Below, in pieces: positions 5,600 through 41,470 of a stretch of 64,000 nt of DNA. The position numbers and the translations under genes were made by a program. The DNA is taken from positions 118,218-182,217 of the forward strand of contig JBNGDF010000001.1 of assembly GCA_049975265.1 (NCBI GenBank), read 5' to 3'. The DNA comes from Fidelibacterota bacterium. Lineage in GTDB: Bacteria; Fidelibacterota; UBA2242. The notes under the pieces were generated by a model. It had not been told where the DNA came from and did not search any database. It saw only the letters and a program-made list of their open reading frames with translations. Numbering within the stretch: the stretch's first letter is position 1; each line of letters opens with the position of its first letter.

Positions 5600-6406
5600 A
5601 TGAATGATGAACGCGTATCAATTGATTCCGGAAAAGTAATTACGACCCTTTTCTGGGTCGGAGTTTTCAGCATTGCCATGGGTTTTCTGGAGGCGATTGT
5701 GGTGGTGTATCTGCGGAAAATCTACTATCCCGGCGGCTTTGTGTTTCCCATGAGTCCCGTCTCTCCGCAAATGTATCTTGTGGAACTGGTCCGGGAGATA
5801 GCGACGCTGATTATGCTGGTTTCGATCGGGTTTTTAGCAGGCAAGAAGGGGATTCAACGCCTGGCTTATTTTCTGATCAGTTTCGGCGTCTGGGATATTT
5901 TTTATTATGTGGCGCTGAAACTTTTTCTGGACTGGCCTGATTCGCTGCTGACCTGGGACGTGCTGTTTCTAATTCCACTCCCCTGGCTCGGTCCGGTGAT
6001 TGCGCCGGTTCTGGTTTCGCTATCCATGATCTGGATCGGGATTAATCTGATTCTGCTGGATGAATTGGATGGTCCGCTGGTGTTGAAAGCCGACGAGTGG
6101 TTACTGCTGATGGCAGGCTGTGGCTTGATATTTATCAGTTTTATCTGGAATTATGCGGCGCTGATTATCCGGAACGGATTTTTACCGCAATTTTTCCTTC
6201 TGGCGGAAAACCGGGATTTTTTACAAATCGTCTATGATTATGTACCGGAGGATTTTAACTGGTTTCTCTTTTTTGCCGGTGAGCTGTTGGCTGTTTTAGG
6301 TATGCTCAAAATCCTGTTTCAATACCGGCGGCTGATTCAGGAGACTGCCCGGGAGCTGTATGCGCAGCTCCGGATGGCTCAGCGCCGGGTCTTTCATAGT
6401 AATTAA
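5600..6406 (+). CDS. hypothetical polytopic membrane protein
   Basis: 268 aa, about 7-8 hydrophobic helices, no recognisable catalytic motif; sits between Nif3 and a nitroreductase-fold gene in the same orientation. Confidence 0.45.
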   Translation: MNDERVSIDSGKVITTLFWVGVFSIAMGFLEAIVVVYLRKIYYPGGFVFPMSPVSPQMYLVELVREIATLIMLVSIGFLAGKKGIQRLAYFLISFGVWDIFYYVALKLFLDWPDSLLTWDVLFLIPLPWLGPVIAPVLVSLSMIWIGINLILLDELDGPLVLKADEWLLLMAGCGLIFISFIWNYAALIIRNGFLPQFFLLAENRDFLQIVYDYVPEDFNWFLFFAGELLAVLGMLKILFQYRRLIQETARELYAQLRMAQRRVFHSN

Positions 6407-17473: not shown

Positions 17474-18367
17474 TCAGGTCTCCTCCGGGCGCAGTAGTTC
17501 GTGCAGGAGAATTCCGGCAGAAACTGCCACATTCAGAGATTCTCCGCTGCCGTGCTTCGGAACCGCTATAATGTCATGGGCGGCATATTTAACCGCTTCT
17601 GGTAAACCGTGTGATTCACTGCCCAGAACCAAGCCCCAGTGTTTGTGTGGACAGGGTTGTACCGGTTTCCCGCCGGGATCGGCGCAGAATACCGCAATAT
17701 TCTTTTGAATACAATAGTCTAAAAGATCATCAGGGGCGACATTTTGCCATATGGAAACGTGGAAAACGGCGCCCATCGATCCACGTACAACTTTTGGAGA
17801 GTAGGGATCGACGCTGTTGGGGGAGATTATGATATGCCGGATACCAAACCAGCAGGCGGTTCTGAGGATGGTTCCCAAGTTGCCGGGATCGTTGATTTCC
17901 CAGAGAAATAGAAAGGGTGATTGTTCAGTATCTTCCGGCGGAAAAGAGTATTCCGGCAGGCTGGCAATGGCAAGAACACCCTCCGGATTTTTCTGTGAGC
18001 TAATGGATCGTATATCTGCATCCCTGACAATTTTAACCGTATCCCAGTCGACAGGAATCCCGCTGAAGATGTTTTTCTCATAAGCAGAGTGACCGAGATA
18101 GATCCGCCCGACCGGAAAGTGTGCCTCCAGCGCCTCCTTTAGGAGCTTGGCTCCCTCGAGCATGAACTGCTGCTGGCGGTAGCGGAATTTTTTCTGCTGA
18201 AGAGCAGTGACCTGCTGCCGTTCCGGGCGGGATAGCCGAAAAACCGGTTGATCTTCTCCTGACTTCTTGAATCTCTCTGGATTTCGACGGTTGCCATCAT
18301 TATATTTGCGGGGGTGTTGTACAGTGTTCACAAAAGATAAGTTATTGATAGCAGGCAAATGAAACAA
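17474..18367 (-). CDS. TrmH/SpoU family RNA 2'-O-methyltransferase (RlmB-like)
   Basis: N-terminal substrate-binding region (LQQKKFRYRQQQFMLEG), SPOUT motifs LEINDPGNLGTILRTA, LVLGSESHGL, LNVAVSAGILL; exact start uncertain. Confidence 0.8.
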   Translation of the reverse strand: MFHLPAINNLSFVNTVQHPRKYNDGNRRNPERFKKSGEDQPVFRLSRPERQQVTALQQKKFRYRQQQFMLEGAKLLKEALEAHFPVGRIYLGHSAYEKNIFSGIPVDWDTVKIVRDADIRSISSQKNPEGVLAIASLPEYSFPPEDTEQSPFLFLWEINDPGNLGTILRTACWFGIRHIIISPNSVDPYSPKVVRGSMGAVFHVSIWQNVAPDDLLDYCIQKNIAVFCADPGGKPVQPCPHKHWGLVLGSESHGLPEAVKYAAHDIIAVPKHGSGESLNVAVSAGILLHELLRPEET

Positions 18368-19519
18368 GCCCGCAACATCAGAGAAATGTTACACATGCTG
18401 GTTCTTTTTAGACGGGCGGCGCGGGTCGTATTGCTCTATTCCTGTCACGGATTGCTCAACTATTGGATTCGCCGACGCCCGGTTTTGAAAAAAAGTCAGA
18501 TCGGACTGCCCGGAAGAGACAAGATTCATCCGGCTGTTCTTTATACAACAGCAATATCCGAAAAACGCCCGGTATTTGTCGTAGTTGCCGGAACGAGTGC
18601 CTTTGCCCGGAAGCGTCAGCGCCTGAACTGCTTTGCCAAAGCCCTGGCACTGGTTGGTTATCACGTAATCATTGTAAAAAATGAAAATGGGCAGCATATC
18701 CCGGGTACAATTGATCCGACAGAAATCGGTGAAATTATTGAGGCAGTTTCCCTGGATGAGCGGTTTGACAGCAGCCGGATTGTGCTGGTGGGTGCCGATT
18801 TCAGTTCAGCCTGTTTACTGGCGGCAATGAATAATGCAGAAGCCCTTTGGAAAATCCACAGCTTTCTTTTTCTATCACCGGTGACGGATATAAGCAGTCT
18901 CATCAATTTTGCTTTTCGGGGTCGGGTCAAAATCCGGGGTCGCTGGTTTTACCGCTCCTCTTCCGTCAAAATCCGACTTCTTTATCTGTTGTTCGTCCTG
19001 AAAACCGGTCTGTCTCCCGATCAATTTGAGCGGGTATCCGGCATTATATCTCTGCTGCTATCAGACCGTCCGACGACGGCATTTCAGAAAGTTCAGACCC
19101 TTGAGTCGGATATTCACCACCTGCTGCTGGCTGTTTATAGGGGGGATATGGATACTAATGCCGTCCGGAGTTTGACGGAAATATACCGGCGTGATCTGGA
19201 TGCGTCGTATAGCGAGGCGATTCCATCATGTGATCTCGAACGCCCGGTCTTTATTGTACACAGTATCCTTGATGAGGATGTTGATTGCGGGCAGGGTCAG
19301 CTGCTCTGGGAGAAGCTGTCCAGCTCGGCAGGTGTTTACCTGCATTTGACGGATTTTGTGCTTGCCGACGGATGCCGGTCGCTTGTCACCAATCCGGCGA
19401 AATGGGTCTGGGGTGCTTTCGACATGACCCGTGCTCTTTACAGAGTACTGGCGTATCTTTACAGTGATAAAAATTTACCCTATAATCCCACCCAAACAGC
19501 CCTTCGGATGCGTATTTAA
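18359..19519 (+). CDS. hypothetical protein, degenerate alpha/beta-hydrolase-like fold
   Basis: 386 aa; hydrolase-like strand-turn-helix RIVLVGADFSSACLLA where a GxSxG elbow would be (G-A-D-F-S, last Gly missing); no other motif recognised. Confidence 0.3.
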   Translation: MKQARNIREMLHMLVLFRRAARVVLLYSCHGLLNYWIRRRPVLKKSQIGLPGRDKIHPAVLYTTAISEKRPVFVVVAGTSAFARKRQRLNCFAKALALVGYHVIIVKNENGQHIPGTIDPTEIGEIIEAVSLDERFDSSRIVLVGADFSSACLLAAMNNAEALWKIHSFLFLSPVTDISSLINFAFRGRVKIRGRWFYRSSSVKIRLLYLLFVLKTGLSPDQFERVSGIISLLLSDRPTTAFQKVQTLESDIHHLLLAVYRGDMDTNAVRSLTEIYRRDLDASYSEAIPSCDLERPVFIVHSILDEDVDCGQGQLLWEKLSSSAGVYLHLTDFVLADGCRSLVTNPAKWVWGAFDMTRALYRVLAYLYSDKNLPYNPTQTALRMRI

Positions 19520-22499: not shown

Positions 22500-22715
22500 A
22501 TGAAGAAAAATGTGGATATCATTATAAATGAAGACTGGTGTAAAAGCTGTGAGATTTGCGTCACTTTTTGTCCGAAAAAGGTTTTTGACATGGGTCGTTT
22601 TTATCCCATAGTAGCCAGACCGGAAGACTGCATCAATTGCAAATTATGCGAAATGTTATGTCCGGATTTTGCGATTCAGGTGATTGCGACCGATGATAAG
22701 GATAAGAATAAGTAA
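22500..22715 (+). CDS. korD: 2-oxoacid:ferredoxin oxidoreductase delta subunit (2x[4Fe-4S] ferredoxin)
   Basis: 71 aa with two CxxCxxCxxxCP motifs (CKSCEICVTFCP, CINCKLCEMLCP). Confidence 0.85.
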   Translation: MKKNVDIIINEDWCKSCEICVTFCPKKVFDMGRFYPIVARPEDCINCKLCEMLCPDFAIQVIATDDKDKNK

Positions 22716-22729
22716 GCAACGGAGATTCT

Positions 22730-23878
22730 TTGGAAACACCAAATCCCAATATCAAGATGTGGCAGGGCAATGTCGCCTGTGCCGAGGGTGCTCTGGCGGC
22801 GGGATGTCGTTTTTTTGCAGGTTATCCCATTACTCCCTCGTCTGAGATTGCCGAGGTGCTGGCGCTGCGTCTGCCACAAATGGGTGGCAACTTTATTCAG
22901 ATGGAAGATGAGATTGCTGCAATGGGGGCAACCATCGGCGCATCTCTGGGGGGCGTAAAAGCCATGACCGCCACCAGCGGTCCGGGATTTTCGCTGAAGC
23001 AGGAAAATATCGGTTTCGCGGCGATGGCTGAGATCCCCTGCGTGGTGGTGAATGTCCAGCGCGGTGGACCCAGCACCGGACTACCGACGCACACCTCTCA
23101 GGGAGATGTCATGCAGGCTCGCTGGGGAACTCATGGTGATCACCCCATCATTGTGCTGGCACCCTGCTCTGTGCGGGAAACCTACGATATGACGGTGAGA
23201 GCCTTCAATCTGGCGGAAAAGTACCGCACGCCGGTTATTCTCCTGTCGGATGAAATTGTCGGGCATTTGACAGAAAAGGTCGAGATTCCGCCTATTGAGT
23301 CGCTGGGACTGATAGATCGCAAAAAGCCCGTGGTACCACCCGATCAGTACAAACCCTATGAAATGGATGCGAGTGACATTCCGCCGATGGCAAATTTCGG
23401 CGAGGGGTACCGCTATCATGTAACCGGTCTGGCTCATGATGAGACCGGATTTCCGACCAACGATCCGGAAAAAATCCAGGCACAGCTGGAGCGCCTGAAC
23501 CGGAAAATCGACCGCTACCGGGACCAAATCGTTGAGGTGGAGACCCAGTTTACCGAGGACGCCGAAATATTGGTGATATCCTTTGGCTCTACCGCCCGAT
23601 CGGCTCGTCGGGCGGTGATAAACGCCAGAGAACAGAATGTTAGAGCCGGCTTCCTGCGCCTGAAAACGATCTGGCCCTTTCCCGGCGCAGAGATCGAAGC
23701 CATCGGATGTTCGGAGCAGGTGCAACGGATTATTGTTCCTGAAATGAATCTCGGTCAGCTGGCGCATGAGGTCGAATGGGCTGTACGCCGCTCAAGACCG
23801 GTAGTGCGGATCAATAAGATCAACGGCGAGCCGATCGCGCCCAGTGAAATTTTGAATACCATAATGGAGCAAAAATAA
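22730..23878 (+). CDS. korA: 2-oxoacid:ferredoxin oxidoreductase alpha subunit
   Basis: KorA/PorA blocks GYPITPSSEI, TATSGPGFSLK, VVVNVQRGGPSTGLPT. Confidence 0.9.
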   Translation: METPNPNIKMWQGNVACAEGALAAGCRFFAGYPITPSSEIAEVLALRLPQMGGNFIQMEDEIAAMGATIGASLGGVKAMTATSGPGFSLKQENIGFAAMAEIPCVVVNVQRGGPSTGLPTHTSQGDVMQARWGTHGDHPIIVLAPCSVRETYDMTVRAFNLAEKYRTPVILLSDEIVGHLTEKVEIPPIESLGLIDRKKPVVPPDQYKPYEMDASDIPPMANFGEGYRYHVTGLAHDETGFPTNDPEKIQAQLERLNRKIDRYRDQIVEVETQFTEDAEILVISFGSTARSARRAVINAREQNVRAGFLRLKTIWPFPGAEIEAIGCSEQVQRIIVPEMNLGQLAHEVEWAVRRSRPVVRINKINGEPIAPSEILNTIMEQK

Positions 23879-23880
23879 CG

Positions 23881-24693
23881 ATGGATTATCTATACTATTT
23901 ACGCCGGGATAAAATGCCCCATATCTGGTGTGATGGATGTGGGCACGGTATCATTTTGAAGTCCATTCTGAGGTGCATTGACAAAATGGGCTGGGACAAA
24001 AACGATATCGCTCTGGTTTCTGGGATCGGTTGTTCCAGCCGGACGCCGGGCTATGTGGATTTTAACACCCTGCATACAACCCACGGTCGGGCGCTGGCGT
24101 TTGCCACGGGATTGAAAATTGCCAAACCGAACCTGCATGTAATTGTCGTCAGCGGCGACGGTGATGCAACAGCTATCGGTGGCAATCACTTCATTCATGC
24201 CGCCCGGCGGAATATTGATATCACTATGATCATCTATAACAACTATATCTACGGTATGACCGGCGGACAGGTATCCCCGACGACACCTGCCCACAAGAAA
24301 GCCACAACGGCACCCTACGGCAATCCCGATGAGCCTTTTGATATCAGCCGGCTGGCGCAGTCGGCCGGCGCCATCTATGTCGCCCGCTCTACCGTTTTTC
24401 ATGTAGCCAGGATGGACAAATACATTGAGAGCGCTTTGAATAGAACCGGTTTTTCTGTGGTGGAGATACTGACACCCTGCCCAACGTCCTACGGACGGCG
24501 CAATAAGGAGGGGCGTGGCGTTGATATGCTGATGTATCAAAAAAGCAACAGCATCGGAATCGAGAGAGCAAAAAATATGTCTGCAGAAGAGCTGGTCGGG
24601 AAAATCGTTACGGGTGTATTTGCAGATAAAGGGCAGGAAAGTTATCTTAATCGATACAACGAGGTCATTGAAAAAGCCCGTAAGGGGACATAA
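23881..24693 (+). CDS. korB: 2-oxoacid:ferredoxin oxidoreductase beta subunit (TPP-binding)
   Basis: WCDGCGHG, GIGCSSR, VSGDGDATAIGGNHFIHAARRNIDITMIIYNNYIYGMTGGQ thiamine-PP binding region. Confidence 0.9.
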   Translation: MDYLYYLRRDKMPHIWCDGCGHGIILKSILRCIDKMGWDKNDIALVSGIGCSSRTPGYVDFNTLHTTHGRALAFATGLKIAKPNLHVIVVSGDGDATAIGGNHFIHAARRNIDITMIIYNNYIYGMTGGQVSPTTPAHKKATTAPYGNPDEPFDISRLAQSAGAIYVARSTVFHVARMDKYIESALNRTGFSVVEILTPCPTSYGRRNKEGRGVDMLMYQKSNSIGIERAKNMSAEELVGKIVTGVFADKGQESYLNRYNEVIEKARKGT

Positions 24694-24707
24694 TACAAGG
24701 AGACTGT

Positions 24708-25277
24708 ATGGCTTTTCGCTATGAAATACGATTGAGTGGTTCCGGCGGGCAGGGCCTGATTCTGGTGGGTAAGGTTCTGGCGGAAGCGGCGGCGATTTAC
24801 GATGGACTGAATGCGACCCAGAGTCAGTCCTACGGACCGGAAGCCCGGGGGGGTGCCAGTCGCTCCGAGGTGATCATTTCCGATGGCGATATCGATTATC
24901 CCAAAGCGGAGAACATCGATATTTTGCTGGCATTGACCCAGGAAGCCTGCGATAAGTATATTACGGATCTCAAAGGAAGTGGCATCTTAATTGTCGATTC
25001 GCAAATGGTGACAAAGATTCCGGAAGGTGACTTTCGGGTGGTGGCGGTGCCGATTATTCAGTCGGCGGTGGAACGGCTTGGTAATTTTCTGGTTTCCAAT
25101 ATTATCGCATTGGGGATTATCATCAAATTGTCCGGGATCGTTTCGGAGGATTCCGCCAAACATGCCATCCGCTCACGGGTTCCAAAGGGAACCGAGGAGG
25201 TTAATATCAAAGCCTTCTACGCCGGGGTTGAACTGGCGCAGAAATGGCTGGAACAGCACGGACCGCTGAAAGCGTAA
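24708..25277 (+). CDS. korC: 2-oxoacid:ferredoxin oxidoreductase gamma subunit
   Basis: 189 aa, GSGGQG nucleotide-like loop at N-terminus, typical gamma-subunit length; 14-nt gaps to flanking subunits. Confidence 0.85.
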   Translation: MAFRYEIRLSGSGGQGLILVGKVLAEAAAIYDGLNATQSQSYGPEARGGASRSEVIISDGDIDYPKAENIDILLALTQEACDKYITDLKGSGILIVDSQMVTKIPEGDFRVVAVPIIQSAVERLGNFLVSNIIALGIIIKLSGIVSEDSAKHAIRSRVPKGTEEVNIKAFYAGVELAQKWLEQHGPLKA

Positions 25278-25287
25278 TCAGACCGTT

Positions 25288-28269
25288 GTGATTCACACAG
25301 TCGACTTTTCCACGATTGATCTCTTTGGACGTGTCAGCGCCCTGGGAAATCACCATAATAAATATCTGTTAAATATTGAGAAAAATTTTGATGCCCTGGT
25401 CTCGCTGATTGATGCCAAGCATCTTTTTGACCAGTTCCGTCTGCTTCGATTTTCGTCGCAGCCGGCGCGGGAGATGCGCCTAATTAAGGATTTTATCAAG
25501 GACCGTGAGACATTGCTGGAAATGCTGGGATGTTATTACTCGCTTCAATTTCTGCTGATGAATATCAAGGCGCTGGATGTACTTCAGATGAATCTCTCGA
25601 AGCCCACCGACCGGTACGAAAATTTTCAGTGGTTTTTGATGCGCACCGGCTCCGATTTCCGACTGCTCAGTGGAGCCTATATGGAAATTCTGCTGGATAT
25701 TTTTCTGCCGGAAACGTCACGTCCCGACTTTGTGGTCTGCTGCGTGGGTACACGGGTTGATCAGGACGATATCGATTTGGGGGTGATTGACCGGGGCACC
25801 AGAGACCGGCGCATTATTACAAAAGCCTTTGGTCTGCTGAACCGGGAGATGTTGAAAAATGCCAGCGCGCTGCATTTTCATCTCTCCGAACATGTCGGTA
25901 AAAGCGGCTATTCGGCATCCATTGCAGAGTATCATGACCTGCTGGATCATGAGATACAGGATTTCGTCATATTGAGCGAGATGCTGAATGCTGTGCCGAT
26001 TCTCGGTCAACGGGCGCTTTTTCACCAGTTCAAAACCGAGATTCTGGACCGTTATTACTATCACCCGGCGAATGATAATAAATACCACGAGGGTTGTCTG
26101 CGGGGTTTACTGGGGGAAATCCGGGACCTGATCATGAAGGAAGCTCCGGAAAACATCCTGATTCCCAAGCGGGATGCGCTGCGGATGCTGAAGGCGACCC
26201 TGTTTGCCATGAAGACCTGGAAAGGGATTGATCGCAATACTACTCTGGAGGTTCTGGACGTTCTGCTGAAAACCGATCTCTCCAACCGGGACGACTATCT
26301 GCGGATTCATCGCGCCCTGACCTTTTTTGAGACCTTCCGGTTTCTATATCATCTGATTGTTGTGCAGGAAGAGGAGATATATCTGGAAGATGCCAACATG
26401 TCCGACAATCTGCAGAAGGTGGCTTTGGCGATGGGCTACGAAGACAAAAGCTATGCGCCGGCATATACACAGATGCTGATTCATTATCAGGATTTACAGG
26501 AGACCGCCCGGCGCGGTGCCGAACGTCTCATCGGGCAGATCAACAAACACTTACAAAATATCACGATATTTAATTCGATTACCGGTGTGGCGGATAAAAC
26601 GGTGCATGCGGAATCGGGAGAGCGGATTAATATTGCCAAGGAATTTATCAGACAGTCCACCTTTTTCCGTGGAATCCGTTTCTGGGACGATGTGTTTACC
26701 CGGCTGGACAGCGAGGATGAAATTCTACTGAATATGTTTATCAGCGATTTTATCAATCTGCCGGGTGAACAGATGATTTCCCTGCTCAAAACCTATGTAC
26801 GCTGGGGGCGGACGTCGCCTTACTCGCTGATTTCGCTGATAACAATTCTGGCAAAACACCGACCGGCATTGGCGGAGTCAAATTTTATCCGCTGTTTTTT
26901 GGATGAATTCATTAACGATCTTCAGGGTACCTATGAAAATATCAGCCGCTTGTGTCACATTCTGAATTTTGCTCCCCGGATGATGAACAATTTTCTGGCA
27001 TTGCTGAACGAAGATCATCTGACGCGTCTGATCGGAATTGTTGACCAGCCTTTGTGGCGTCCCGATATTCAGATGTTACAGGATAATCTGCTGATCATGT
27101 GCCGCCTTTACAGAGACAGCAGTTACTATTTTCAGCGTTTTGTACAGCGGGTGTTTAATTCCTATGCGGACTATATTTCCACTTTGAGAAATGAGCCAAA
27201 ATTTGCCCAGATTGCGGACGGTCTGCTGCGCAATCTGGATAATTTTGATACAATTTCGGAGCGAATCGAAAAGCTGGGCGACTACTATGATTTTGAGTTT
27301 TTACGGCTCGGCATCAAGATGATTTCCGGCGGATCCTTTGAGACGGTAAACCAGCAGTTCACAATTTTTTCGGACAATTTTATCCAGATTCTGTTTGATC
27401 TGTGCCGGGAAGAGATTGCCAGGGAGATGGATGATGAAATTTTGGAGACCCGCGACCTGCTGGCGGTTTTTGCCGCGGGCGGACATGCCCGCAGTCAGTC
27501 ATTTGACGACGATTATGATTTGATCATATTATTGAATTCCGACGATGAGAAGATGCTGCAATACGCCAACCGGATTATTCTGAAAATGAATAAGCATATT
27601 ATTCGCCGTTCCATTATGACGCACTACCGCTTTGCCGACCGGTTTAAGAATTACGTTACCACGTTTCAGAATCTTAAGGACTTCTTCCGTCATCCCGATG
27701 AAAGTGCCTTTATTGATATGTCGCAGTTGCTCGGCTCCCGAATGATCGTGGGCAGCGCTCATTTCAAGGATGCCTTTGAGAAGGAGATTGTCATTCCCTT
27801 CATTTTTAACCGGAAAGCGGAGTTCACAAAATCGCTAAAAGCCGAAATCGATTCACGGCAAACATACCGCCTGACATCCGAAGAGATCGATATCAAAGAG
27901 TGTCCCGGGGGTCTGCGGGATATGGAAAATTTTCTGTTTATTCTCAAAGCCCATTTCTCCATCGTCAGACCGATATCGGAGAAGCTGTTCAAACAGCTGT
28001 TCCAGTTATTACCCAACCATGAGATTGAAATAGATACTCTTCGTCAGAATTATTTCCTGCTGAAACATATTCGCGACCTCTATCACCTGATGGTCTCTGA
28101 TAACGATGAGCTGCAGACCGACTATCTTGCAAACATAATTCCGCCGCTGAATCAATCGCGGAAACTGAATCTGGCGAGTGTTGATCAGCTGCGGAAAATG
28201 ATCGAATCACTGCTGCAGGAGAACGTGGAGCTGATCGCTCAATTATTGGAGCTGGTGGAATCCAACTGA
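25288..28269 (+). CDS. divergent GlnE-like tandem nucleotidyltransferase (glutamine-synthetase adenylyltransferase-type architecture)
   Basis: 993 aa, GTG start 10 nt after korC; two NTase-like motifs: VCCVGTRVDQDDIDLGVI (N half) and AAGGHARSQSFDDDYDLIILL (C half, GG..R....D.DL like GlnE/GlnD) each followed by long helical regions; no HD motif seen. Confidence 0.5.
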   Translation: MIHTVDFSTIDLFGRVSALGNHHNKYLLNIEKNFDALVSLIDAKHLFDQFRLLRFSSQPAREMRLIKDFIKDRETLLEMLGCYYSLQFLLMNIKALDVLQMNLSKPTDRYENFQWFLMRTGSDFRLLSGAYMEILLDIFLPETSRPDFVVCCVGTRVDQDDIDLGVIDRGTRDRRIITKAFGLLNREMLKNASALHFHLSEHVGKSGYSASIAEYHDLLDHEIQDFVILSEMLNAVPILGQRALFHQFKTEILDRYYYHPANDNKYHEGCLRGLLGEIRDLIMKEAPENILIPKRDALRMLKATLFAMKTWKGIDRNTTLEVLDVLLKTDLSNRDDYLRIHRALTFFETFRFLYHLIVVQEEEIYLEDANMSDNLQKVALAMGYEDKSYAPAYTQMLIHYQDLQETARRGAERLIGQINKHLQNITIFNSITGVADKTVHAESGERINIAKEFIRQSTFFRGIRFWDDVFTRLDSEDEILLNMFISDFINLPGEQMISLLKTYVRWGRTSPYSLISLITILAKHRPALAESNFIRCFLDEFINDLQGTYENISRLCHILNFAPRMMNNFLALLNEDHLTRLIGIVDQPLWRPDIQMLQDNLLIMCRLYRDSSYYFQRFVQRVFNSYADYISTLRNEPKFAQIADGLLRNLDNFDTISERIEKLGDYYDFEFLRLGIKMISGGSFETVNQQFTIFSDNFIQILFDLCREEIAREMDDEILETRDLLAVFAAGGHARSQSFDDDYDLIILLNSDDEKMLQYANRIILKMNKHIIRRSIMTHYRFADRFKNYVTTFQNLKDFFRHPDESAFIDMSQLLGSRMIVGSAHFKDAFEKEIVIPFIFNRKAEFTKSLKAEIDSRQTYRLTSEEIDIKECPGGLRDMENFLFILKAHFSIVRPISEKLFKQLFQLLPNHEIEIDTLRQNYFLLKHIRDLYHLMVSDNDELQTDYLANIIPPLNQSRKLNLASVDQLRKMIESLLQENVELIAQLLELVESN

Positions 28270-28274
28270 TCGAA

Positions 28275-29423
28275 TCAATCTCCGAGTTTGGAGAGCGCTT
28301 TGCGGGCGGATTTTAGGGCGATGGAGATCATTCTGTCCTGAAATTCTGCCACCTCTGCCGGTTTCGGCTGGATCTTTTCCCATCGTCTGAGTTGCCGTGC
28401 GGTGACACGGAATATCCGGTTTTGTGCCCGGTCCAGAATTCGGCGGAGGCTCTGATATTTGCCCATGTCAATACGGGTCTCGTCAACATAGATGGTGTTT
28501 TTAATGTCTCTGAAGACCGAATTTAAGAGCGCGCTGTCCATTCCGCTCAGTGCATCGGGTATCCGCTCTGCCCGGACCCACAGTGGAACGGCAATGGCAG
28601 CAGCCGGTTCGCCCAAGGTACACCAGAAGGTCGTCATTTCCGGACTATTATCGGCAGTGCCGTCAAAGATAGCCGCGGATACGGTTCGATGGCGGTTGAT
28701 GGTATTACGGGTCTCCCGCAGCCGGGGCTGATGGGGGTCCAGTAAGGAATCGGGCAGAGTCATGTCCCGGGAGACGGTCGTGATCAGGTAGCGGTGGTCG
28801 AGCTGCCCTTTTTGAATGGCATCGGCAATAAGCGATTTTGCCTGGTTATAGCGGATTCTGCCATAGCCTTCGGAGGAACGGGCATTGTGGGCGAAATTGG
28901 CACGTACCAGATAACCCGGTGGATCGGCATCAAACCGAAAGTATTCGTGATTGCCTGTTTCGAAGAAAGCGGCGCTTCCCAGTGCATCAATGACACCAAA
29001 ATTGCTGGTGACCTTGCGTCCCGATGAATTACTTCTGCGGAGCATCTCCTCGAAATCATCGATAGTCCGGCAGTGCCGGAGGGCGGCTTTCATCCAGATG
29101 CCCTCATCGTCGTAGCCGGTGTTTTCGTCGGGGCGTGCCAGATCGCGGGATTCGGCATTCATGATGGCAAAGCCGAAATTGTTCACTCCCGCCCAGACCT
29201 GGCTTGTATCGCCGGCATTGATCAGTCCCAGATAGTGCATGGAATTATCATTGAAAAAGACAATCGCATTTTGTTCAAAACCGGAATCCCGGTTTTTCCA
29301 GAGTAAAACGTGGTTGCTTTTGGTGGCATTTGGTCCGGCAAGTCCGGTGGTACAAGCGAAGGTAGCCGGTATGGAGCCGGAAATGCTTATCGAGATGGCG
29401 AGAATGATGAGCCTTGTTTTCAT
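28275..29423 (-). CDS. secreted N-terminal-nucleophile cysteine hydrolase, peptidase C69-like dipeptidase
   Basis: Signal peptide then ...FACTTGLAG...LLWKNRDSG matching C69 N-terminal nucleophile block (ACTTILVG...LIARNED) with Cys directly after predicted cleavage site. Confidence 0.6.
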   Translation of the reverse strand: MKTRLIILAISISISGSIPATFACTTGLAGPNATKSNHVLLWKNRDSGFEQNAIVFFNDNSMHYLGLINAGDTSQVWAGVNNFGFAIMNAESRDLARPDENTGYDDEGIWMKAALRHCRTIDDFEEMLRRSNSSGRKVTSNFGVIDALGSAAFFETGNHEYFRFDADPPGYLVRANFAHNARSSEGYGRIRYNQAKSLIADAIQKGQLDHRYLITTVSRDMTLPDSLLDPHQPRLRETRNTINRHRTVSAAIFDGTADNSPEMTTFWCTLGEPAAAIAVPLWVRAERIPDALSGMDSALLNSVFRDIKNTIYVDETRIDMGKYQSLRRILDRAQNRIFRVTARQLRRWEKIQPKPAEVAEFQDRMISIALKSARKALSKLGD

Positions 29424-30546: not shown

Positions 30547-30918
30547 ATGTTAAAAGGTGACAAAGAGATCATTTTAGTGGGTGACCGGGTGCTGATTGAT
30601 CCGGACACCGATCAGTCCAAAACCCCGTCCGGTCTTTATCTGCCACCGGGTGTCAAGGAGAAGGAGATCGTCCAGGGTGGTTATATTGTCAAGGTCGGTC
30701 CCGGATTTCCGATCCCAGTTATGGATGAGTCCTCCGATGAACCCTGGGCGCAGGAATACCGCGAGCCCCAGTACATGCCGCTCCAGGCGGAAGAGGGCGA
30801 TTATGCCATCTTTCTGCGCAAACATGCCATTGAAATTGAGCTGGAGGGCAAGAAATATATCATTGTGCCGCACTCCTACATACTGGTTCTGATCCGGGAA
30901 GATTTTCTGGATGAATAG
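30547..30918 (+). CDS. GroES-like co-chaperonin-fold protein with ~50-aa internal insertion (stand-alone, no groEL nearby)
   Basis: N-terminal LVGDRVLIDPDTDQSKTPSGLYLP...IVQGGYIVKVGPG follows the GroES pattern; extra acidic segment before final beta-strands KKYIIVPHSYILVLI. Confidence 0.5.
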   Translation: MLKGDKEIILVGDRVLIDPDTDQSKTPSGLYLPPGVKEKEIVQGGYIVKVGPGFPIPVMDESSDEPWAQEYREPQYMPLQAEEGDYAIFLRKHAIEIELEGKKYIIVPHSYILVLIREDFLDE

Positions 30919-30977: not shown

Positions 30978-31844
30978 TTAATCTATCCAGCGAACATCGA
31001 CACTGCCAAGACCGATTTCGATCACCAGATAAATACGCCGCCCGGCATTTTTCCAGTTTTTGCTGCGATAGATATTCTTTTCGATCTCTCTGAATCCATT
31101 GAAATTGAGGGAAGACAGAAATGAGCTTTCAGCTTCGATCTGGACGGCGTATTCTTCCGGTATTTCAATGGTCAGGGAGCCGAGCCCGACAGTCAGCCGC
31201 CCCTTGATATCGCGTCTCAGATCGCCGTCAAACCGTAATTTTGTTGATCCTAGACCAGATTCCACGCTGAACCGGTCCATATTGCTATTGCACAGTCCGG
31301 TCACCTCCACGTTGCCCAGACCTGTTTGAATGACCAAGTTGCGGATACGCTCGGGATTATTTTTAGCAAATTCGATCAGCACATCGCTGAGCCCGCATTC
31401 CAGATTAAGATCGCTGACCCTGATTTTTGTAAAATCGAGAACACCCTTGCCCAACCCAAATTCAATATCATAGGCAGTGGGTACCTGATCCGTCATGGCG
31501 ATGCGCCAGTGATTATTTTTAATGTCGGAATCGCTTTTTTTTGAGCGCCCCCAGACAGATTTGTCTTTATTCTGATGGGAGACCATCTTCAGCTTGCCCC
31601 GGTCGCCTACGGTTTTATAGCTGATTTCCGGACGGTAAATATCTTTTGAGTAGGTTACTTCCGCCTGCATAAGGTATTTGGAATTGTCAATACTGCGCAG
31701 CTCCAGCTGTCCCAACCCGAATTCAATGCCCACATCCAGCTCCTTTTCGCCTTTGTAGGGCACGCTGTGTCGCTCGGCGACGATATTATTGGATTGGGCG
31801 CTTATGGACAGGAAAATCAAAATCGGGAGGATGATCTTTTTCAT
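30978..31844 (-). CDS. DUF4097-family putative adhesin / beta-helix repeat protein (secreted)
   Basis: Start moved to ATG 31844 (AAGAGG 7 nt upstream); signal peptide MKKIILPILIFLSISAQS; seven iterated x(I/V)xxGLGxxxL(x)F units (IEFGLGQLEL, IEFGLGKGVL, IQTGLGNVEV, VESGLGSTKL, LTVGLGSLTI, IEIGLGSVDV). Confidence 0.55.
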   Translation of the reverse strand: MKKIILPILIFLSISAQSNNIVAERHSVPYKGEKELDVGIEFGLGQLELRSIDNSKYLMQAEVTYSKDIYRPEISYKTVGDRGKLKMVSHQNKDKSVWGRSKKSDSDIKNNHWRIAMTDQVPTAYDIEFGLGKGVLDFTKIRVSDLNLECGLSDVLIEFAKNNPERIRNLVIQTGLGNVEVTGLCNSNMDRFSVESGLGSTKLRFDGDLRRDIKGRLTVGLGSLTIEIPEEYAVQIEAESSFLSSLNFNGFREIEKNIYRSKNWKNAGRRIYLVIEIGLGSVDVRWID

Positions 31845-31876
31845 GAAGTAAACCTCTTTAGATGTCAAAGCCAATT

Positions 31877-33109
31877 CTACTGGCGACGGATGTCGATATT
31901 TCCGCCGCTGGTTTTTAGAGTAATATCATCACCGCCGCCATTGATGCGTCCTTCACCAGTGATTATCAGTTTGGAGCCACGGCTCTCTTTTTGGATGTCG
32001 AGCGGGAAATCAGAGCGGATCTCGCAACGATCCCATTTGTCATAAACCGTAATTTGGGCGAAAATGTCGGCTTTCATATAATCGGGTATTGTAAGGGAAA
32101 TATCCCCACCGGAAGATGCCAGATCAATTTTATGGTTGGGGAGCGATTTTCTAAGCAGCTTATTTACCTCAATATCTCCACCGGAGGTCCGACCGTAGAC
32201 GGCTCCGTAAACCTCAGATATGTAGATATCACCGCCTGATGTAGTAGCCTGAATTTTTTCTTCAGCCATGCGGACTTCAATATCCCCACCGGATGTGTTC
32301 AGCGTACATTCGCCGCTGACCCTGCCGATGTCAATATCGCCGCCCGAGGTATTTAGCGTTAATTCCGCATCAATATCATCGGCACCAATATCACCACCCG
32401 AGGTGCTGCCCTTGAAAAATTTACCTCTGACGCCAGCAATGTAAATGTCACCACCCGAGGTCTTGATTTCGCCGTCACCGATCAACTTTTTAACGGTAAT
32501 GTCGCCGCCCGAGGTTTTGGCGTAAGTATTGCCGGATATTTGATTTAAAACGACATCACCGCCCGAGGTTATCGCCCGGATTTCGGCTCTGCAATCACGG
32601 ATGCTTATATCTCCGCCGGAAGTATTGACCGTTAATTTTCCGGCTGTCTCCAGAATATCAATGTCTCCGCCCGAAGTACGGATTTCGATAATGCCATTTA
32701 CGGTTTCGGTCACAATATCACCACCAATTACGTCAATATTGAGATTGAAGTTGTTCGGAACCTGTATGGTAAAGTCGTTTTGATAGCGCCGGAAATTGTC
32801 ACCCCCTTCGATCGTCAGGACATCGCCCTTTTGAATATATTTGGCGCGGTAAGCCCGGAGTATTTTTTCAGCCTCTTTTTCGGAATAGGTATTAATCCGG
32901 AAACGCTCGGTAACCGTGACATTATTACGGGCTGCGCCGACAATTTTGATATCACCGCGAATCTTCTTCATCACCAGGGAGCCCTTTTCGGAAATATTGT
33001 ATTCCTTGACCGATTCGCCATGATAACGCATGCCGTCGTATTCCAATTTCTGAGCCGGCAGCTGGCAGTAGAGAAGGATTAAAATTAAAATTAGACGATT
33101 TATTTTCAT
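31877..33109 (-). CDS. DUF4097-family putative adhesin / beta-helix repeat protein (secreted), TSGGDI repeat type
   Basis: Signal peptide LILILILLYCQLPAQ; at least 13 tandem ~19-aa units each containing (T/S)SGGDI(x)I; stop overlaps start region of downstream paralogue. Confidence 0.6.
   Translation of the reverse strand: MKINRLILILILLYCQLPAQKLEYDGMRYHGESVKEYNISEKGSLVMKKIRGDIKIVGAARNNVTVTERFRINTYSEKEAEKILRAYRAKYIQKGDVLTIEGGDNFRRYQNDFTIQVPNNFNLNIDVIGGDIVTETVNGIIEIRTSGGDIDILETAGKLTVNTSGGDISIRDCRAEIRAITSGGDVVLNQISGNTYAKTSGGDITVKKLIGDGEIKTSGGDIYIAGVRGKFFKGSTSGGDIGADDIDAELTLNTSGGDIDIGRVSGECTLNTSGGDIEVRMAEEKIQATTSGGDIYISEVYGAVYGRTSGGDIEVNKLLRKSLPNHKIDLASSGGDISLTIPDYMKADIFAQITVYDKWDRCEIRSDFPLDIQKESRGSKLIITGEGRINGGGDDITLKTSGGNIDIRRQ
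31912..32707 (-). repeat. intragenic ~57-nt periodic imperfect tandem repeats (encode TSGGDI beta-strand units)
   Basis: Recurring ccgccgga / ccacc(c)ga(g/a)gt(g/a) ... atatc(a/g)cc blocks visible on plus strand 32100-32700. Confidence 0.5.
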
Positions 33110-34149
33110 TGCAACACCTGTTGGTTACTTTTTTCCAGAATAATGTCCAGGTAATTCTGAGCGGTTTTACGCAGTGTCGAATCGGGGTCATTGGTGGCAA
33201 TTAATGCCAGAATCGGCACAGTTGTTTCATCGGCGCTCTGATAGAGCTCTTTGACGGCTCGGCGTCGAATTTCGAAGCTGCTGTCCCGCAGAGCGATGGT
33301 TTTGAAAGCGTCCATGATCCGGGGTGTCAGGTCATAGGATTCCAGTGCATCCATCGCCTGTTCGCGGACTTCCGGGTCACTGTCGTTAAGCAGTACCGAT
33401 ATCATGGTAGACTCGTTGCGGCTGTTCTGGGGCGATTTAGCCAATAATTTGATTGCTCGCAGGCGCCGGGAGGGGTCTTGATCGTGGATTGCCGAATACT
33501 GGAGCATGTTCAATATCGTGGGATCATCGAGACCGCCTTTAATGGCAATATCGCGGTCCACTTTCAGGTTGACTTCCACCATGCCATCATCATCCGTGGA
33601 GCTCTGGATTAGATCTGCCACCTCTACCCCACCGGACTGAATGAGATAGTTTGCCATTACCTTTTGCAGCTGTTCCTTTTCTGTATCGGTGAGAGCAACC
33701 TGATAATTGACAAAATTTGCCAGCATGCCCGGATCGTGCCGCAAACCGCTGCTCAACCAGAGTTTGCCGACGAAAACACCGATCACGAAGGTAGCCCCAA
33801 TGGCGATCAACTGATACCGGGGGTGAGCAAAGAATCCGGTAAAGGCTTCCTGTATTTCATCGAGAATACCGGTGAGGGACCATTTGAATTTGCGCTTTTT
33901 CGTCTGCCGGATGGCGCTCATGACCCTGGCATTGGCACGCTCTATCAGAGCCGGAGCGGGAACCGCCCGGGTAGTGTGTTCCAGTACCGCTTGCATGTCG
34001 TTCAGCCGCTGTAATGCAGCGGAGCACTCCGGACATTCCGCCAGATGTTTTTCAAACTGCGCCGCATCCCTGGCGCTTAGTTCGTTATGAAAATAGAGCA
34101 TCAGCATGGGTTCAAATTGCTTGTGTGTTTTCATAGTAGATTCCTTCAT
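33106..34149 (-). CDS. anti-sigma factor, zinc-finger (zf-HC2) type with one TM helix and C-terminal HEAT-like repeat domain
   Basis: FEKHLAECPECSAAL (HxxxCxxC), TM segment LIAIGATFVIGVFVGKLWL, C-terminal repeats DPEVREQAMDALESY / EIRRRAVKELYQ / DPDSTLRKTAQNYL; ATGA overlap with sigma gene. Confidence 0.7.
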   Translation of the reverse strand: MKESTMKTHKQFEPMLMLYFHNELSARDAAQFEKHLAECPECSAALQRLNDMQAVLEHTTRAVPAPALIERANARVMSAIRQTKKRKFKWSLTGILDEIQEAFTGFFAHPRYQLIAIGATFVIGVFVGKLWLSSGLRHDPGMLANFVNYQVALTDTEKEQLQKVMANYLIQSGGVEVADLIQSSTDDDGMVEVNLKVDRDIAIKGGLDDPTILNMLQYSAIHDQDPSRRLRAIKLLAKSPQNSRNESTMISVLLNDSDPEVREQAMDALESYDLTPRIMDAFKTIALRDSSFEIRRRAVKELYQSADETTVPILALIATNDPDSTLRKTAQNYLDIILEKSNQQVLQ

Positions 34150-34700
34150 GCCTTGACAAGTAAGCTTTGTAGTTTGCGGGTCGCCCGAAACAGATACCGC
34201 TTTACAGTTCCTTCGGTGCAGTCCAGGATTGCGGCGATATCTTTGATCTTTTTTCCTTCGTAATGTTTCAAAATGAAGACCACCCGCTGTTGCGAAGAGA
34301 GCTGCCGTAGCGCCCGGTCAATTTCCTCCCGCAGGGATGCATTGAGCGTCGCCTGATCGGCTTCACTGGCTTCGTCGTCCGGAATAGTCTCCCAGAGGTA
34401 ATCATCTTCGCCGGGGTCTACGGTCATCATCCGCTTTGATTTGCGATAGAAATTGAAAGCCTGATTAGCCAGAATCCGATAAACCCAGGTGAAAAACTCG
34501 CTTTCAAACCGAAAAGAGCCGATATTGCGGTATACTTTAATAAAGGTTTCCTGATACAGGTCTTCGGCGTCCTGGTAGTTTTTGGTGAAATGAAAAGCCA
34601 GCCCCATCACTCGCTCTCCGTACTTGCTCATCATCGTCTGGAAGGCCATTTCATCACCATTTTTTATTCTTTCAATCAGATCTATTTCCTGCTGATCCAT
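34146..34700 (-). CDS. RNA polymerase ECF-type sigma-70 factor
   Basis: Region 2 (DLYQETFIKVYRNIGSF, FFTWVYRILANQ) and region 4 HTH (KIKDIAAILDCTEGTVKRYLFRATRKL). Confidence 0.9.
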   Translation of the reverse strand: MDQQEIDLIERIKNGDEMAFQTMMSKYGERVMGLAFHFTKNYQDAEDLYQETFIKVYRNIGSFRFESEFFTWVYRILANQAFNFYRKSKRMMTVDPGEDDYLWETIPDDEASEADQATLNASLREEIDRALRQLSSQQRVVFILKHYEGKKIKDIAAILDCTEGTVKRYLFRATRKLQSLLVKA

Positions 34701-39259: not shown

Positions 39260-41470
39260 TTATTTCTTTTTGGGCAATATCTTATGTTTTCCCGACGAAG
39301 ATTTGCTCAGAACCTGATACATCTGCCTGGCTGTTTTGCACGCCAGCAGTTTTTTACGACCCTCTTCGTCAAAAGCCTGACTGATCATAGACATAAAGTG
39401 CATATGCGGTGCCGAGGCACTCTCCGGCGAAAGTGTCAGCACGATGATATTAGCCGGCTTTCCGTCAACGGAATGAAACTCAACTCCCTCCCGCTTGATT
39501 CCAATTGCGCAGACCAGCCGATCAACGGCGTCACAGCGTCCATGGGGAATGGCGATGCCGTACTGAATGCCGGTTGACATGCTTGCCTCCCGCTCGAGGA
39601 CAGTTTTCCGCGCTAACTCACAATCCTTTATCAATCCCTGGCTGTTCAGAATGTGCAGCAGTTCGTCAATGATCTCTTCTTTGGTGTCACCCTTAAGTGA
39701 GGGGCATAATACACCGGGTGTCAGGTACTGAGCCAGATCGCTTCGGATCGGCATTTTGGTCGGGGATTGCTCCTGAATGCGCCGGACAACGGCGGCGCTG
39801 TCGATTGGTTTGCGAAGCGCCTTGACCGTCGTCTCAAATTCGGCGAATACCTCATACATTGCCGTATTGATGTAGGGCACAATACTTTTATCGCAATCAA
39901 TATTGATGGTATGAAGGTCAACCTCTACACCGATGATCATGTCGTCCTTGCGCAGCTGATAAATCTGGCGGGGCTGGTTCAGGGTGTGGATGTAGAATCC
40001 TTCCAATTCAAACAGGTTGAACAGTTTGCTGGTCATCAGGCTGGCGGTCTGAACATTGGGAAACTGGAAGGAGAGCCGGGTCTCCTCGGTTTTGCGGATC
40101 TGCCGCCGGACGCCGCTCTGGTCGTGCCGGAAAATGGTTACTAGCACAGGCGGTGAAATCAGCGTCGTTATCAGGGTCATCATTACGGCGATTCCAAAAA
40201 ATTCCGGTGGTAACAGACCCGCCGCCAGACCGATGCCGGCGATAATCAACGCCACCTCGCCTCTTGGCAGCATGCCCACCCCGATCCGCAGGGCGCCCCG
40301 CAGGTTGAAATTGGCAAAAAGGGTCGGTATACCACAGCCGAAAACCTTTGATACAATTGCGCCAAAGGTGTATAAGAGTCCAAACAGCAAAACCGTTTTG
40401 GAAGCCAGCAGACGGACATCAACCAGCATGCCCATAACGGTGAAAAAGACCGGCACGAGAAAAGAGTAAATCGGTCCCATTTTTTCCATAATCACATGGT
40501 TAATATCGGTTTTTGAGAGGGATAATCCCATAATGTAGGCGCCGATAATCATCGCCAGTCCCGCCTCTTCGAAAAGTCCTGCCAGGACCAGCGCGAATCC
40601 CAATGCCATCATGGCGATGGAGGTGCGGTCATGAAACCATTTCAGCAGGAGACTGATTTTGCGGGAAGCCAGCAGACCGATAATTGTAGCCGCCGCCCAG
40701 ATACCAAAAGCCTTGACTGAAATAATGCCGATATGAGCCCAATCGACATAACCTGATTTTGCCGAAGCGGCGACGATTCCGAGACCGATGGCCAGCAGAA
40801 TGATACCGAGTACGTCATCGATTACCGCGCCCGCCAGGATGGTCACCCCTTCCGGCGAATCGAGTTGGCGTTGCTCTGATAAAATCCGGGCGGTGATTCC
40901 CACCGATGTGGCGGTGGCTATGATCCCCAGAAACAGGCAGGGAGGCGAAAAAAAGCCCAGCTGGGTTCCGAAGAACCATTTGGATAACCAGATCGTGAGC
41001 AGGTCACCGATTATAAAGGAGAAAAGGACGCCTCCGATGCCCACAATACCGCCGATGACGGAGTAGCGTAAAAACAGGCGGAAATCGGTCTCCAGTCCGA
41101 TCATGAACAGCAGCACAATGGATGCCACTGTGCTGATTCCGTACAATTCGGGTGATATGGGAAAATTGTTCGAGCTGATTGGAAATATACCCGCCGGAAA
41201 GCCGGGCAGCGGAACCGCGCCGAGTAAAAAGGGTCCGATTAGAATGCCGGCAAACAGTTCACCCAGGACACCGGGCATTTTGAATTTTTCGAAAGATATA
41301 TTGCCCAGGCGCGCTGCAAACAGAATGAGCCCCAGTTGTATGACCAGCATCATCATGCGGTGAGTCATAGTGCCCGGGAGGGCGGTTTGAGTGGCAGAGA
41401 AGAGATAATCCGAAGCCAGGAGTCCGACCATTAATTGCAGGCAACGTTTGGTGAAACGATTTATTTTCAT
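39260..41470 (-). CDS. CPA2-family cation:proton antiporter (KefB/NhaP-like) fused to C-terminal PTS EIIA(Ntr/fructose-type) domain
   Basis: N-terminal ~400 aa with 12-13 TM helices and Na+/H+ exchanger blocks (LGELFAGILIGP, GLETD); C-terminal ~150 aa with EIIA-2 phospho-His motif GIAIPHGRC and regulatory linker. Confidence 0.8.
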   Translation of the reverse strand: MKINRFTKRCLQLMVGLLASDYLFSATQTALPGTMTHRMMMLVIQLGLILFAARLGNISFEKFKMPGVLGELFAGILIGPFLLGAVPLPGFPAGIFPISSNNFPISPELYGISTVASIVLLFMIGLETDFRLFLRYSVIGGIVGIGGVLFSFIIGDLLTIWLSKWFFGTQLGFFSPPCLFLGIIATATSVGITARILSEQRQLDSPEGVTILAGAVIDDVLGIILLAIGLGIVAASAKSGYVDWAHIGIISVKAFGIWAAATIIGLLASRKISLLLKWFHDRTSIAMMALGFALVLAGLFEEAGLAMIIGAYIMGLSLSKTDINHVIMEKMGPIYSFLVPVFFTVMGMLVDVRLLASKTVLLFGLLYTFGAIVSKVFGCGIPTLFANFNLRGALRIGVGMLPRGEVALIIAGIGLAAGLLPPEFFGIAVMMTLITTLISPPVLVTIFRHDQSGVRRQIRKTEETRLSFQFPNVQTASLMTSKLFNLFELEGFYIHTLNQPRQIYQLRKDDMIIGVEVDLHTINIDCDKSIVPYINTAMYEVFAEFETTVKALRKPIDSAAVVRRIQEQSPTKMPIRSDLAQYLTPGVLCPSLKGDTKEEIIDELLHILNSQGLIKDCELARKTVLEREASMSTGIQYGIAIPHGRCDAVDRLVCAIGIKREGVEFHSVDGKPANIIVLTLSPESASAPHMHFMSMISQAFDEEGRKKLLACKTARQMYQVLSKSSSGKHKILPKKK

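Follow-up and report, generated by a model that had tools for sequence, protein, structure and literature searches.

The stretch of DNA analyzed here (64,000 nucleotides (nt), positions 118,218 to 182,217 of contig JBNGDF010000001.1 of a Fidelibacterota bacterium; hereafter 'the window') contains, on its forward strand, a korDABC operon for a 2-oxoacid:ferredoxin oxidoreductase (Kor) that ends with a fifth gene, for a GlnE-like double nucleotidyltransferase of 993 amino acids (aa) that we call NT2 (25288-28269, +; GTG start). The korC-like open reading frame (ORF) ends at position 25277 with TAA, followed by the 10 nt TCAGACCGTT and then by the GTG of NT2. An earlier note on this DNA, made from the sequence alone (the original prediction), had placed a 993-aa ORF with a GTG start 10 nt past korC, and the ORF list and the sequence bear out its coordinates and spacing. 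The GTG start is further supported because homologues begin with MIHT(V/I)DFSTIDL at the equivalent position. The 10-nt gap between korC and NT2 is too short for a terminator, and a scan for promoters and terminators gave consensus matches solely within coding sequence.

NT2 has two modules joined by an all-helical region. The N-terminal module (aa 71-430; 25498-26577, +) comprises a derived nucleotidyltransferase domain and a GlnD_UR_UTase (HEPN-like) helical domain; the central all-helical region (aa 431-655; 26578-27252, +), which contains an invariant FWDD, stands in place of the linker/regulatory region of GlnE; and the C-terminal module (aa 656-993; 27253-28266, +) comprises a canonical nucleotidyltransferase domain and a second GlnD_UR_UTase domain. 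The helical domain of GlnD and GlnE has been classed as HEPN-like in a survey of HEPN domains (PMC3710099). In a profile-profile comparison of the two halves, aa 71-419 align with the C-terminal module over 319 columns with a probability of 99.4% and E 1.8e-21. Alignment at this level indicates that NT2 arose by internal duplication: a single module, with a nucleotidyltransferase domain ahead of a helical domain, is present twice.

Both halves carry conserved residues expected of an active site. The original prediction had named two nucleotidyltransferase-like motifs, one in each half; these are located at aa 153-167 (VGTRVDQDDIDLGVI, nt 25744-25788) and aa 729-749 (AAGGHARSQSFDDDYDLIILL, nt 27472-27534), and both are invariant in an alignment of 39 NT2 members that are 33-78% identical. 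The invariant residues of the N-terminal half in the same alignment are G154, Q159, D161 and D163 in the active-site strands FVVCCVGTRVDQDDIDLGVID (25729-25791, +), H196, E201 and H202 in the motif LHFHLSEH (25870-25893, +), and E231, H267, E268, R272, K294 and R299. Those of the C-terminal half are G731, G732, D741, D742 and D744 in the active-site strands LLAVFAAGGHARSQSFDDDYDLIILL (27457-27534, +), which align with the GlnE residues ...klgggelnfssdidlif; K870, E871, G874, R877, D878 and E880 in the motif IKECPGGLRDMENF (27892-27933, +), which is present in both GlnE domains and aligns with niKlgaGGiReiEf of 1v4a and diKadeGGitDiEf of 3k7d; and R818, G822 and R929. Alignment of the halves places the DxD of the N-terminal half (161/163) and E201 opposite the DxD of the C-terminal half (742/744) and the acidic residue of HYRFAD, a third acidic position (RFAD) that is D or E. 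Each half thus keeps an invariant DxD and a third acidic residue, and because it does so we consider both halves probably catalytic. The results do not support the proposal of a non-catalytic first half, since G154, D161, D163 and E201, together with further His, Glu and Arg residues, are invariant there. The halves differ in two respects: the loop from the conserved Gly to the DxD is 4 residues shorter in the N-terminal half, and PKxDALR stands in the N-terminal half where the C-terminal half has KExxGGLRD. The N-terminal half may nevertheless have a different chemistry, given a set of invariant His, Glu and Arg residues of its own.

Structure prediction relates NT2 to enzymes that transfer AMP to proteins. 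An AlphaFold model built from the alignment (predicted local distance difference test (pLDDT) 88.2, predicted template-modeling score 0.80) contains two alpha/beta-plus-helical modules with an all-helical joint at aa 431-655, the secondary structure of which is taken from the model, with pLDDT mostly >85. In a Foldseek search against the PDB, the model matched GlnE (1v4a, E 1.3e-8) and DrrA (6yx5_B, E 4.4e-4), lower matches being noise; in structure comparison the scores were 26.1 for 1v4a (GlnE removing domain), 22.8 for 3k7d (GlnE transferase domain), 19.4 for 6yx5_B (DrrA), and <10 for the next hit. The predicted fold of NT2 is that of the adenylyl-removing and adenylyltransferase domains of GlnE. 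A search of PDB sequences with the single NT2 sequence gave no match, and a search with the NT2 family profile gave 1v4a and 3k7d only. The three matched structures (1v4a, 3k7d, and DrrA) are all protein AMP-transferases. DrrA/SidM of Legionella pneumophila differs from NT2 in being a secreted effector in which a single module is combined with a guanine nucleotide exchange factor (GEF) domain and in having host Rab1 as its target, whereas NT2 is a housekeeping-type protein with tandem modules.

The likeness to GlnE extends beyond fold. NT2 and GlnE (E. coli, 1v4a, 3k7d) both have two nucleotidyltransferase plus GlnD_UR_UTase modules with a helical middle in about 950-1000 aa (993 aa, vs. 946 aa for E. 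coli GlnE, with the same module order), and G-x(n)-DxD and KxxxGGxRDIE motifs are common to the two. The DxD motifs of NT2 lie at aa 161/163 and 742/744, compared with 173/175 and 701/703, which we take to be the positions of the catalytic aspartates of GlnE. These likenesses, together with the finding that the best fold matches of the model are both GlnE domains, speak for an explanation that we nevertheless consider unlikely, namely that NT2 is a very divergent functional GlnE, the glutamine synthetase (GS) adenylyltransferase/adenylyl-removing enzyme of these phyla, and owes its place next to kor merely to the fact that 2-oxoglutarate, which provides both the carbon skeleton and the signal for ammonium assimilation, is made or consumed by Kor. 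Profile searches and gene neighborhoods, taken up in turn below, argue against it.

The sole Pfam match in NT2 is GlnD_UR_UTase (PF08335), with E 5.9e-9 in the C-terminal half and a weak match in the N-terminal half (aa 312-410, E 9e-4, 19.7 bits, just under the 21-bit cut-off). PF03710 and the NCBIfam GlnE models match neither half, even at E <= 10; E. coli GlnE, as a control, scores 695 bits in the same PF03710 search. Among the 39 members, PF08335 matches all 39, DUF294 (PF03445) matches 7 weakly, and GlnE matches one (E 0.005). NCBIfam GlnD models score about 33 bits against NT2 (E about 1e-8; cut-offs 519-1255). In hhalign comparisons, the C-terminal half aligns with the N-terminal domain of E. 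coli GlnE (E 8e-7), with the C-terminal domain of GlnE (E 1.6e-7, 308 columns including the nucleotidyltransferase domain), and with the N-terminal part of GlnD (E 1e-9). The N-terminal half has no direct match to either GlnE domain or to the N-terminal part of GlnD (E > 0.03), and is not alignable by sequence to either GlnE half (E > 0.1), which again counts against identity with GlnE. Because the GlnE models fail, the GlnD scores are low and the N-terminal half is unmatched, profile comparison places the NT2 family as a separate branch of the GlnE/GlnD/DUF294 group. The duplication in NT2 may or may not be the duplication event that gave rise to GlnE; since the N-terminal half is recognizable only through its own C-terminal half, the two are possibly independent.

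Pfam searches found no HD or ACT domain in NT2, which does not have the domain order of GlnD (nucleotidyltransferase, GlnD_UR_UTase, HD, two ACT), and found no cNMP-binding, CBS or DUF294_C domain, which separates NT2, a tandem protein, from the DUF294/COG2905 architecture. NT2 is thus not a canonical GlnE, because PF03710 does not match, and not a GlnD, because HD and ACT domains are absent. The architecture is the GlnE-like tandem that had been proposed, and not that of GlnD: the halves are homologous, the predicted fold matches the GlnE domains and DrrA, and HD and ACT are lacking. GlnD has its likeness in the C-terminal half of NT2, which resembles the N-terminal nucleotidyltransferase plus GlnD_UR_UTase part of GlnD; NT2 is unlike GlnD in having a second nucleotidyltransferase module in place of HD and ACT.

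This likeness, the best sequence match of the C-terminal half (NCBIfam E about 1e-8; hhalign E 1e-9), would suit a GlnD-like sensor that nucleotidylylates a small signaling protein (e.g., a PII-like protein) or a distant enzyme, with the second module replacing HD for removal and with the linkage to kor reflecting 2-oxoglutarate sensing and not control of Kor. We regard such a sensor as improbable, given scores of 33 bits against cut-offs of 519-1255 and the absence of HD and ACT domains in NT2. The weak DUF294 matches in 7 of the 39 members, DUF294 being a family of unknown substrate, are the evidence for a further explanation, in which NT2 nucleotidylylates or makes a small molecule tied to Kor chemistry or to signaling (a cofactor derivative or a nucleotide messenger); to this we attach very little probability. 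A match of aa 378-453 to DUF6537 (E 7e-4), the C-terminal domain of fused indolepyruvate-type oxidoreductases, offered a possible clue to docking on Kor, and was judged to be due to chance because only 2 of the 39 NT2 members match.

A scan of GTDB, one genome per species, detected NT2 relatives in at least 219 species, with full-length proteins of about 990 aa and uniform homologue lengths of about 970-1010 aa. By record titles, the carriers include Fidelibacterota/Neomarinimicrobiota, KSB1, Calditrichota, WOR-3, Cloacimonadota, Zixibacteria, Stahlbacteria and Zhuqueibacterota, with further carriers among bins labeled Gemmatimonadota and bins labeled Acidobacteriota. An exhaustive search with the family profile, over 1.84 billion representative proteins, returned 161 clusters (50% identity) at E <= 1e-30, and we conclude from this number that the NT2 family is sharply delimited and moderate in size. 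The databases contain, under the name 'hypothetical protein', a 100% identical sequence from a metagenome-assembled genome of Fidelibacterota (Marinimicrobia), so that the host belongs to this phylum and is not the Bacteroidota-like anaerobe that had been supposed. NT2 homologues are annotated as hypothetical almost throughout, with a few labeled DUF294 or COG2905; no curated Pfam or NCBIfam model names the family, and a search of the accessible literature library found no paper on the family or on nucleotidylylation/AMPylation of 2-oxoacid:ferredoxin oxidoreductases. What is known, then, is the fold and the likely chemistry; what is new is the NT2 family, its context and its presumed target.

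The operon upstream of NT2 contains, on the forward strand, korD (22500-22715), for a delta subunit that is a 71-aa ferredoxin with two [4Fe-4S] motifs (Fer4 families in Pfam/NCBIfam); korA (22730-23878), for a 382-aa alpha subunit with POR_N and PFOR_II domains (Pfam/NCBIfam); korB (23881-24693), for a 270-aa thiamine diphosphate-binding beta subunit (TPP_enzyme_C); and korC (24708-25277), for a 189-aa gamma subunit with a POR domain. The longest korA ORF has a TTG start, with an ATG 9 codons downstream. The presence of delta, alpha, beta and gamma subunits in one operon identifies a four-subunit KorDABC/OorDABC enzyme. KorA scores 587 bits against PRK08659 (cut-off 411) and passes only this generic 2-oxoacid level of the NCBIfam models; its nearest solved chains are 1yd7, 8ys5 (2-oxoglutarate synthase) and 6n2n (Magnetococcus KorAB). 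The models nearest to the beta, gamma and delta subunits are 2-oxoglutarate-specific, with scores below cut-offs: KorB scores 331 bits against PRK09628, a 2-oxoglutarate ferredoxin oxidoreductase beta model (cut-off 364), and KorD is nearest to OGOR_delta and OorD, under their cut-offs. Because of these sub-cut-off scores, 2-oxoglutarate is the likely and not the proven substrate of Kor. Genes for fumarase, fumarate reductase and phosphoenolpyruvate carboxykinase (PEPCK) in related loci are compatible with a role of Kor in interconversion of succinyl-CoA and 2-oxoglutarate. KorC matches the gamma-subunit structure 3on3 with E 3.9e-65, i.e., there is a crystal structure of a very close relative, which is useful for mapping candidate modification sites on KorC, the subunit whose gene stays beside NT2.

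Gene order around NT2 is conserved across phyla. We analyzed 80 genome loci, 74 of which have enough upstream sequence to judge. In the loci of KSB1 and Marinimicrobia that were retrieved through exact protein matches, NT2 is preceded by korDABC. In 63 of the 74 loci, from several phyla and including one in which the genes overlap (L042), korC is directly upstream of NT2 on the same strand: this holds for 30 of 30 close relatives (L042 counted) and for 33 of 44 distant relatives. The remainder comprise two loci with kor elsewhere in the locus and nine with no kor. In the other genomes, NT2 mostly starts 11-35 nt after the korC stop, and in three loci (L057, L062, L078) korC is kept with NT2 while korD, korA and korB are divergently transcribed. 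Eight of the nine kor-less loci carry genes for PEPCK, class I fumarase, a fumarate reductase flavoprotein or the oxaloacetate decarboxylase beta subunit. In L086, genes for PEPCK, fumarase alpha and fumarase beta are directly upstream of NT2 on the same strand; in L073, L074, L077 and L084, a divergent gene for a fumarate reductase/succinate dehydrogenase flavoprotein adjoins NT2, with fumarase a few kb away and, in L077 and L084, PEPCK as well; in L076, PEPCK is 4 kb upstream; and L060 and L064 each encode the beta subunit of oxaloacetate decarboxylase. Because the kor-less loci carry genes for PEPCK, fumarase, fumarate reductase and oxaloacetate decarboxylase, we conclude that NT2 travels with enzymes of the route phosphoenolpyruvate (PEP) -> oxaloacetate -> fumarate -> succinate -> succinyl-CoA -> 2-oxoglutarate, most often with those of the last step. 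The synteny of kor and NT2 that the original prediction had proposed to look for in relatives is therefore present and common; its association of NT2 with Kor alone is too narrow, since kor-less copies lie beside genes for PEPCK, fumarase and fumarate reductase.

Genes downstream of NT2 are not conserved between phyla: in the window they encode a C45-family protein and thioredoxin reductase, and in KSB1-type loci FolE2, NDK and acetate kinase. The C45-like gene of the window (28275-29423, -), convergent with NT2 and ending 5 nt past the NT2 stop, has a weak, sub-cut-off match to C45/acyl-CoA:6-APA acyltransferase and is conserved downstream of NT2 only in the closest Marinimicrobia relatives.

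The neighborhoods also bear on the explanations that take NT2 for a regulator of nitrogen assimilation. GlnE acts on GSI-beta, at Tyr397, under the control of PII and glutamine. Pfam annotation, covering 48 of the window's 52 predicted ORFs, revealed no GS, PII, AmtB, GOGAT, glnD or glnE, and tblastn searches with E. coli GlnA, GlnB and GlnE gave no match in the window and none in 86 related loci, a type III GS being able to escape the GlnA query. NT2 is encoded in kor/TCA-branch (tricarboxylic acid-branch) operons, whereas GlnE is encoded alone or with nitrogen genes. That glnA and PII genes were found near none of the 86 loci while TCA-branch genes recur argues against NT2 being a divergent GlnE, as may the restriction, to our knowledge, of GS adenylylation to GSI-beta lineages. 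For a GlnD-like sensor the neighborhoods cut both ways: links to several different TCA-branch operons suit a pathway-level regulator, and a PII-like gene was found in none of the neighborhoods.

On the combined evidence, we tentatively favor the reading that NT2 switches Kor, most likely, or another enzyme of the reductive TCA branch by reversible nucleotidylylation; that Kor or such an enzyme is toggled by reversible AMPylation or UMPylation in particular is possible and, in our judgment, doubtful. Under this reading NT2 would be a cytosolic protein nucleotidyltransferase of two modules, with the fold of GlnE and DrrA, and would be transcribed as the final gene of the korDABC operon. The canonical C-terminal module would use a nucleoside triphosphate to place AMP, or possibly UMP, on a side chain of the target (tyrosine being the side chain modified by GlnE and DrrA); the derived N-terminal module would take the nucleotide off again, like the N-terminal module of GlnE; and the central helical region would sense a metabolic signal. 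The division of adding and removing between the modules and the regulatory input through the helical middle are proposed by analogy with GlnE, by which the C-terminal half is the likelier transferase and the N-terminal half the likelier removing module. The analysis shows the architecture and fold, the catalytic residues conserved in both modules, the place in the operon and the synteny across phyla; from these we infer a protein substrate, its identity, the nucleotide used, the roles of the modules and the signal. The target would most likely be the co-encoded 2-oxoglutarate:ferredoxin oxidoreductase, because Kor is encoded in the same operon and is the most often conserved partner, and because korC in particular stays with NT2; the alternative target would be another enzyme of the branch from PEP to 2-oxoglutarate. 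In either case NT2 would set flux at the 2-oxoglutarate node, much in the way that GlnE governs glutamine synthetase and AceK governs isocitrate dehydrogenase. AceK is the isocitrate dehydrogenase kinase/phosphatase encoded in aceBAK; the parallel is one of logic only, in that AceK is a bifunctional modifying/demodifying enzyme encoded by the last gene of a pathway operon at a TCA branch point, its fold and chemistry (phosphorylation) being unrelated to those of NT2.

Four points weigh against a switch on Kor. First, the case for any target is indirect, since gene neighborhood points to a functional link, not to an enzyme-substrate relation. Second, 9 of 74 NT2 copies are not beside kor. Third, some close Kor operons have no NT2 nearby: in a reciprocal sample of four KorC homologues ~69% identical to KorC of the window, NT2 follows the operon in one case and lies upstream in one, and two (L092, L094) have no copy within 6 kb, so that NT2 is not an obligatory neighbor of this Kor clade. 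Fourth, the shortened nucleotide-binding loop of the N-terminal half and its lack of the GG of KExxGGLRD may signify a chemistry unlike that of the removing domain of GlnE, or ligand binding only.

NT2 defines a separate, conserved, unnamed family of GlnE-like two-module design, tied by gene order, in hundreds of species of little-studied phyla, to interconversion of succinyl-CoA and 2-oxoglutarate and to neighboring reductive TCA steps. Glutamine synthetase is essentially the only known target of housekeeping AMPylation by GlnE-type enzymes; DrrA, the other well-known case, is an effector of a pathogen. If the proposed switch exists, it would be without described precedent as a covalent-modification switch in the 2-oxoacid:ferredoxin oxidoreductase superfamily, would extend the physiological targets of GlnE-type enzymes to a second class, spread widely among uncultured anaerobic phyla, and would offer the AMPylation field a new testable enzyme-substrate pair. 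Modification of Kor itself would amount to post-translational control of a ferredoxin-dependent oxidoreductase at the nitrogen-status metabolite of all bacteria, and would help explain how 2-oxoglutarate is split between catabolism and assimilation in protein-fermenting Marinimicrobia, Cloacimonadota and KSB1.

A second protein recurs near NT2 and kor in other genomes and is not encoded in the window. This protein, of ~244 aa and with the motif IIGALPLL...WD(I/V)DLLF, recurs in eight loci (L068:9243-9974, L075:7724-8458, L080:9264-9998, L081:9203-9958, L085:9234-9968, L079:7878-8648, L091:1-266, L092:2884-3612). In WOR-3, Stahlbacteria, KSB1 and Cloacimonadota it is encoded between korC and NT2 or just before NT2, and in L092 it is encoded beside korDABC with no NT2 within 6 kb. 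Its only matches are weak ones to PF19502 (nucleotidyltransferase of unknown function DUF6036), in 2 of 5 members (E 0.003-0.016), and a further nucleotidyltransferase associated with Kor may thus be represented here. By hhalign it is homologous to neither half of NT2, which rules it out as a third copy of the module.

Elsewhere in the window, a 736-aa fusion of a Na+/H+ exchanger membrane domain and a C-terminal EIIA-2 domain of the phosphotransferase system (PTS) (39260-41470, -) suggests a cation antiporter regulated by a PTS(Ntr)-like phosphorelay. A 259-aa protein (46827-47606, +) is matched only by the C-terminal part of GRDB (glycine/sarcosine/betaine reductase component B; E 5e-7), and the window showed no further grd genes. 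Four ORFs have no Pfam match at E <= 1e-6: 5600-6406 (+; 268 aa), 18359-19519 (+; 386 aa), 31877-33109 (-; 410 aa) and 50571-52031 (-; 486 aa). In a 123-aa ORF (30547-30918, +), only residues 8-53 match chaperonin Cpn10; the small ORF recurs in six related loci and could encode a GroES-like protein joined to an unrelated C-terminal half, unless its boundaries are wrong. Finally, a gene for an extracytoplasmic function (ECF) sigma factor (34146-34700, -) is followed by genes for a zf-HC2 anti-sigma protein with HEAT repeats (33106-34149, -), a family-less ORF and a protein whose N-terminal domain is of the toast-rack type (30978-31874), and together these genes may form a stress-signaling cassette.

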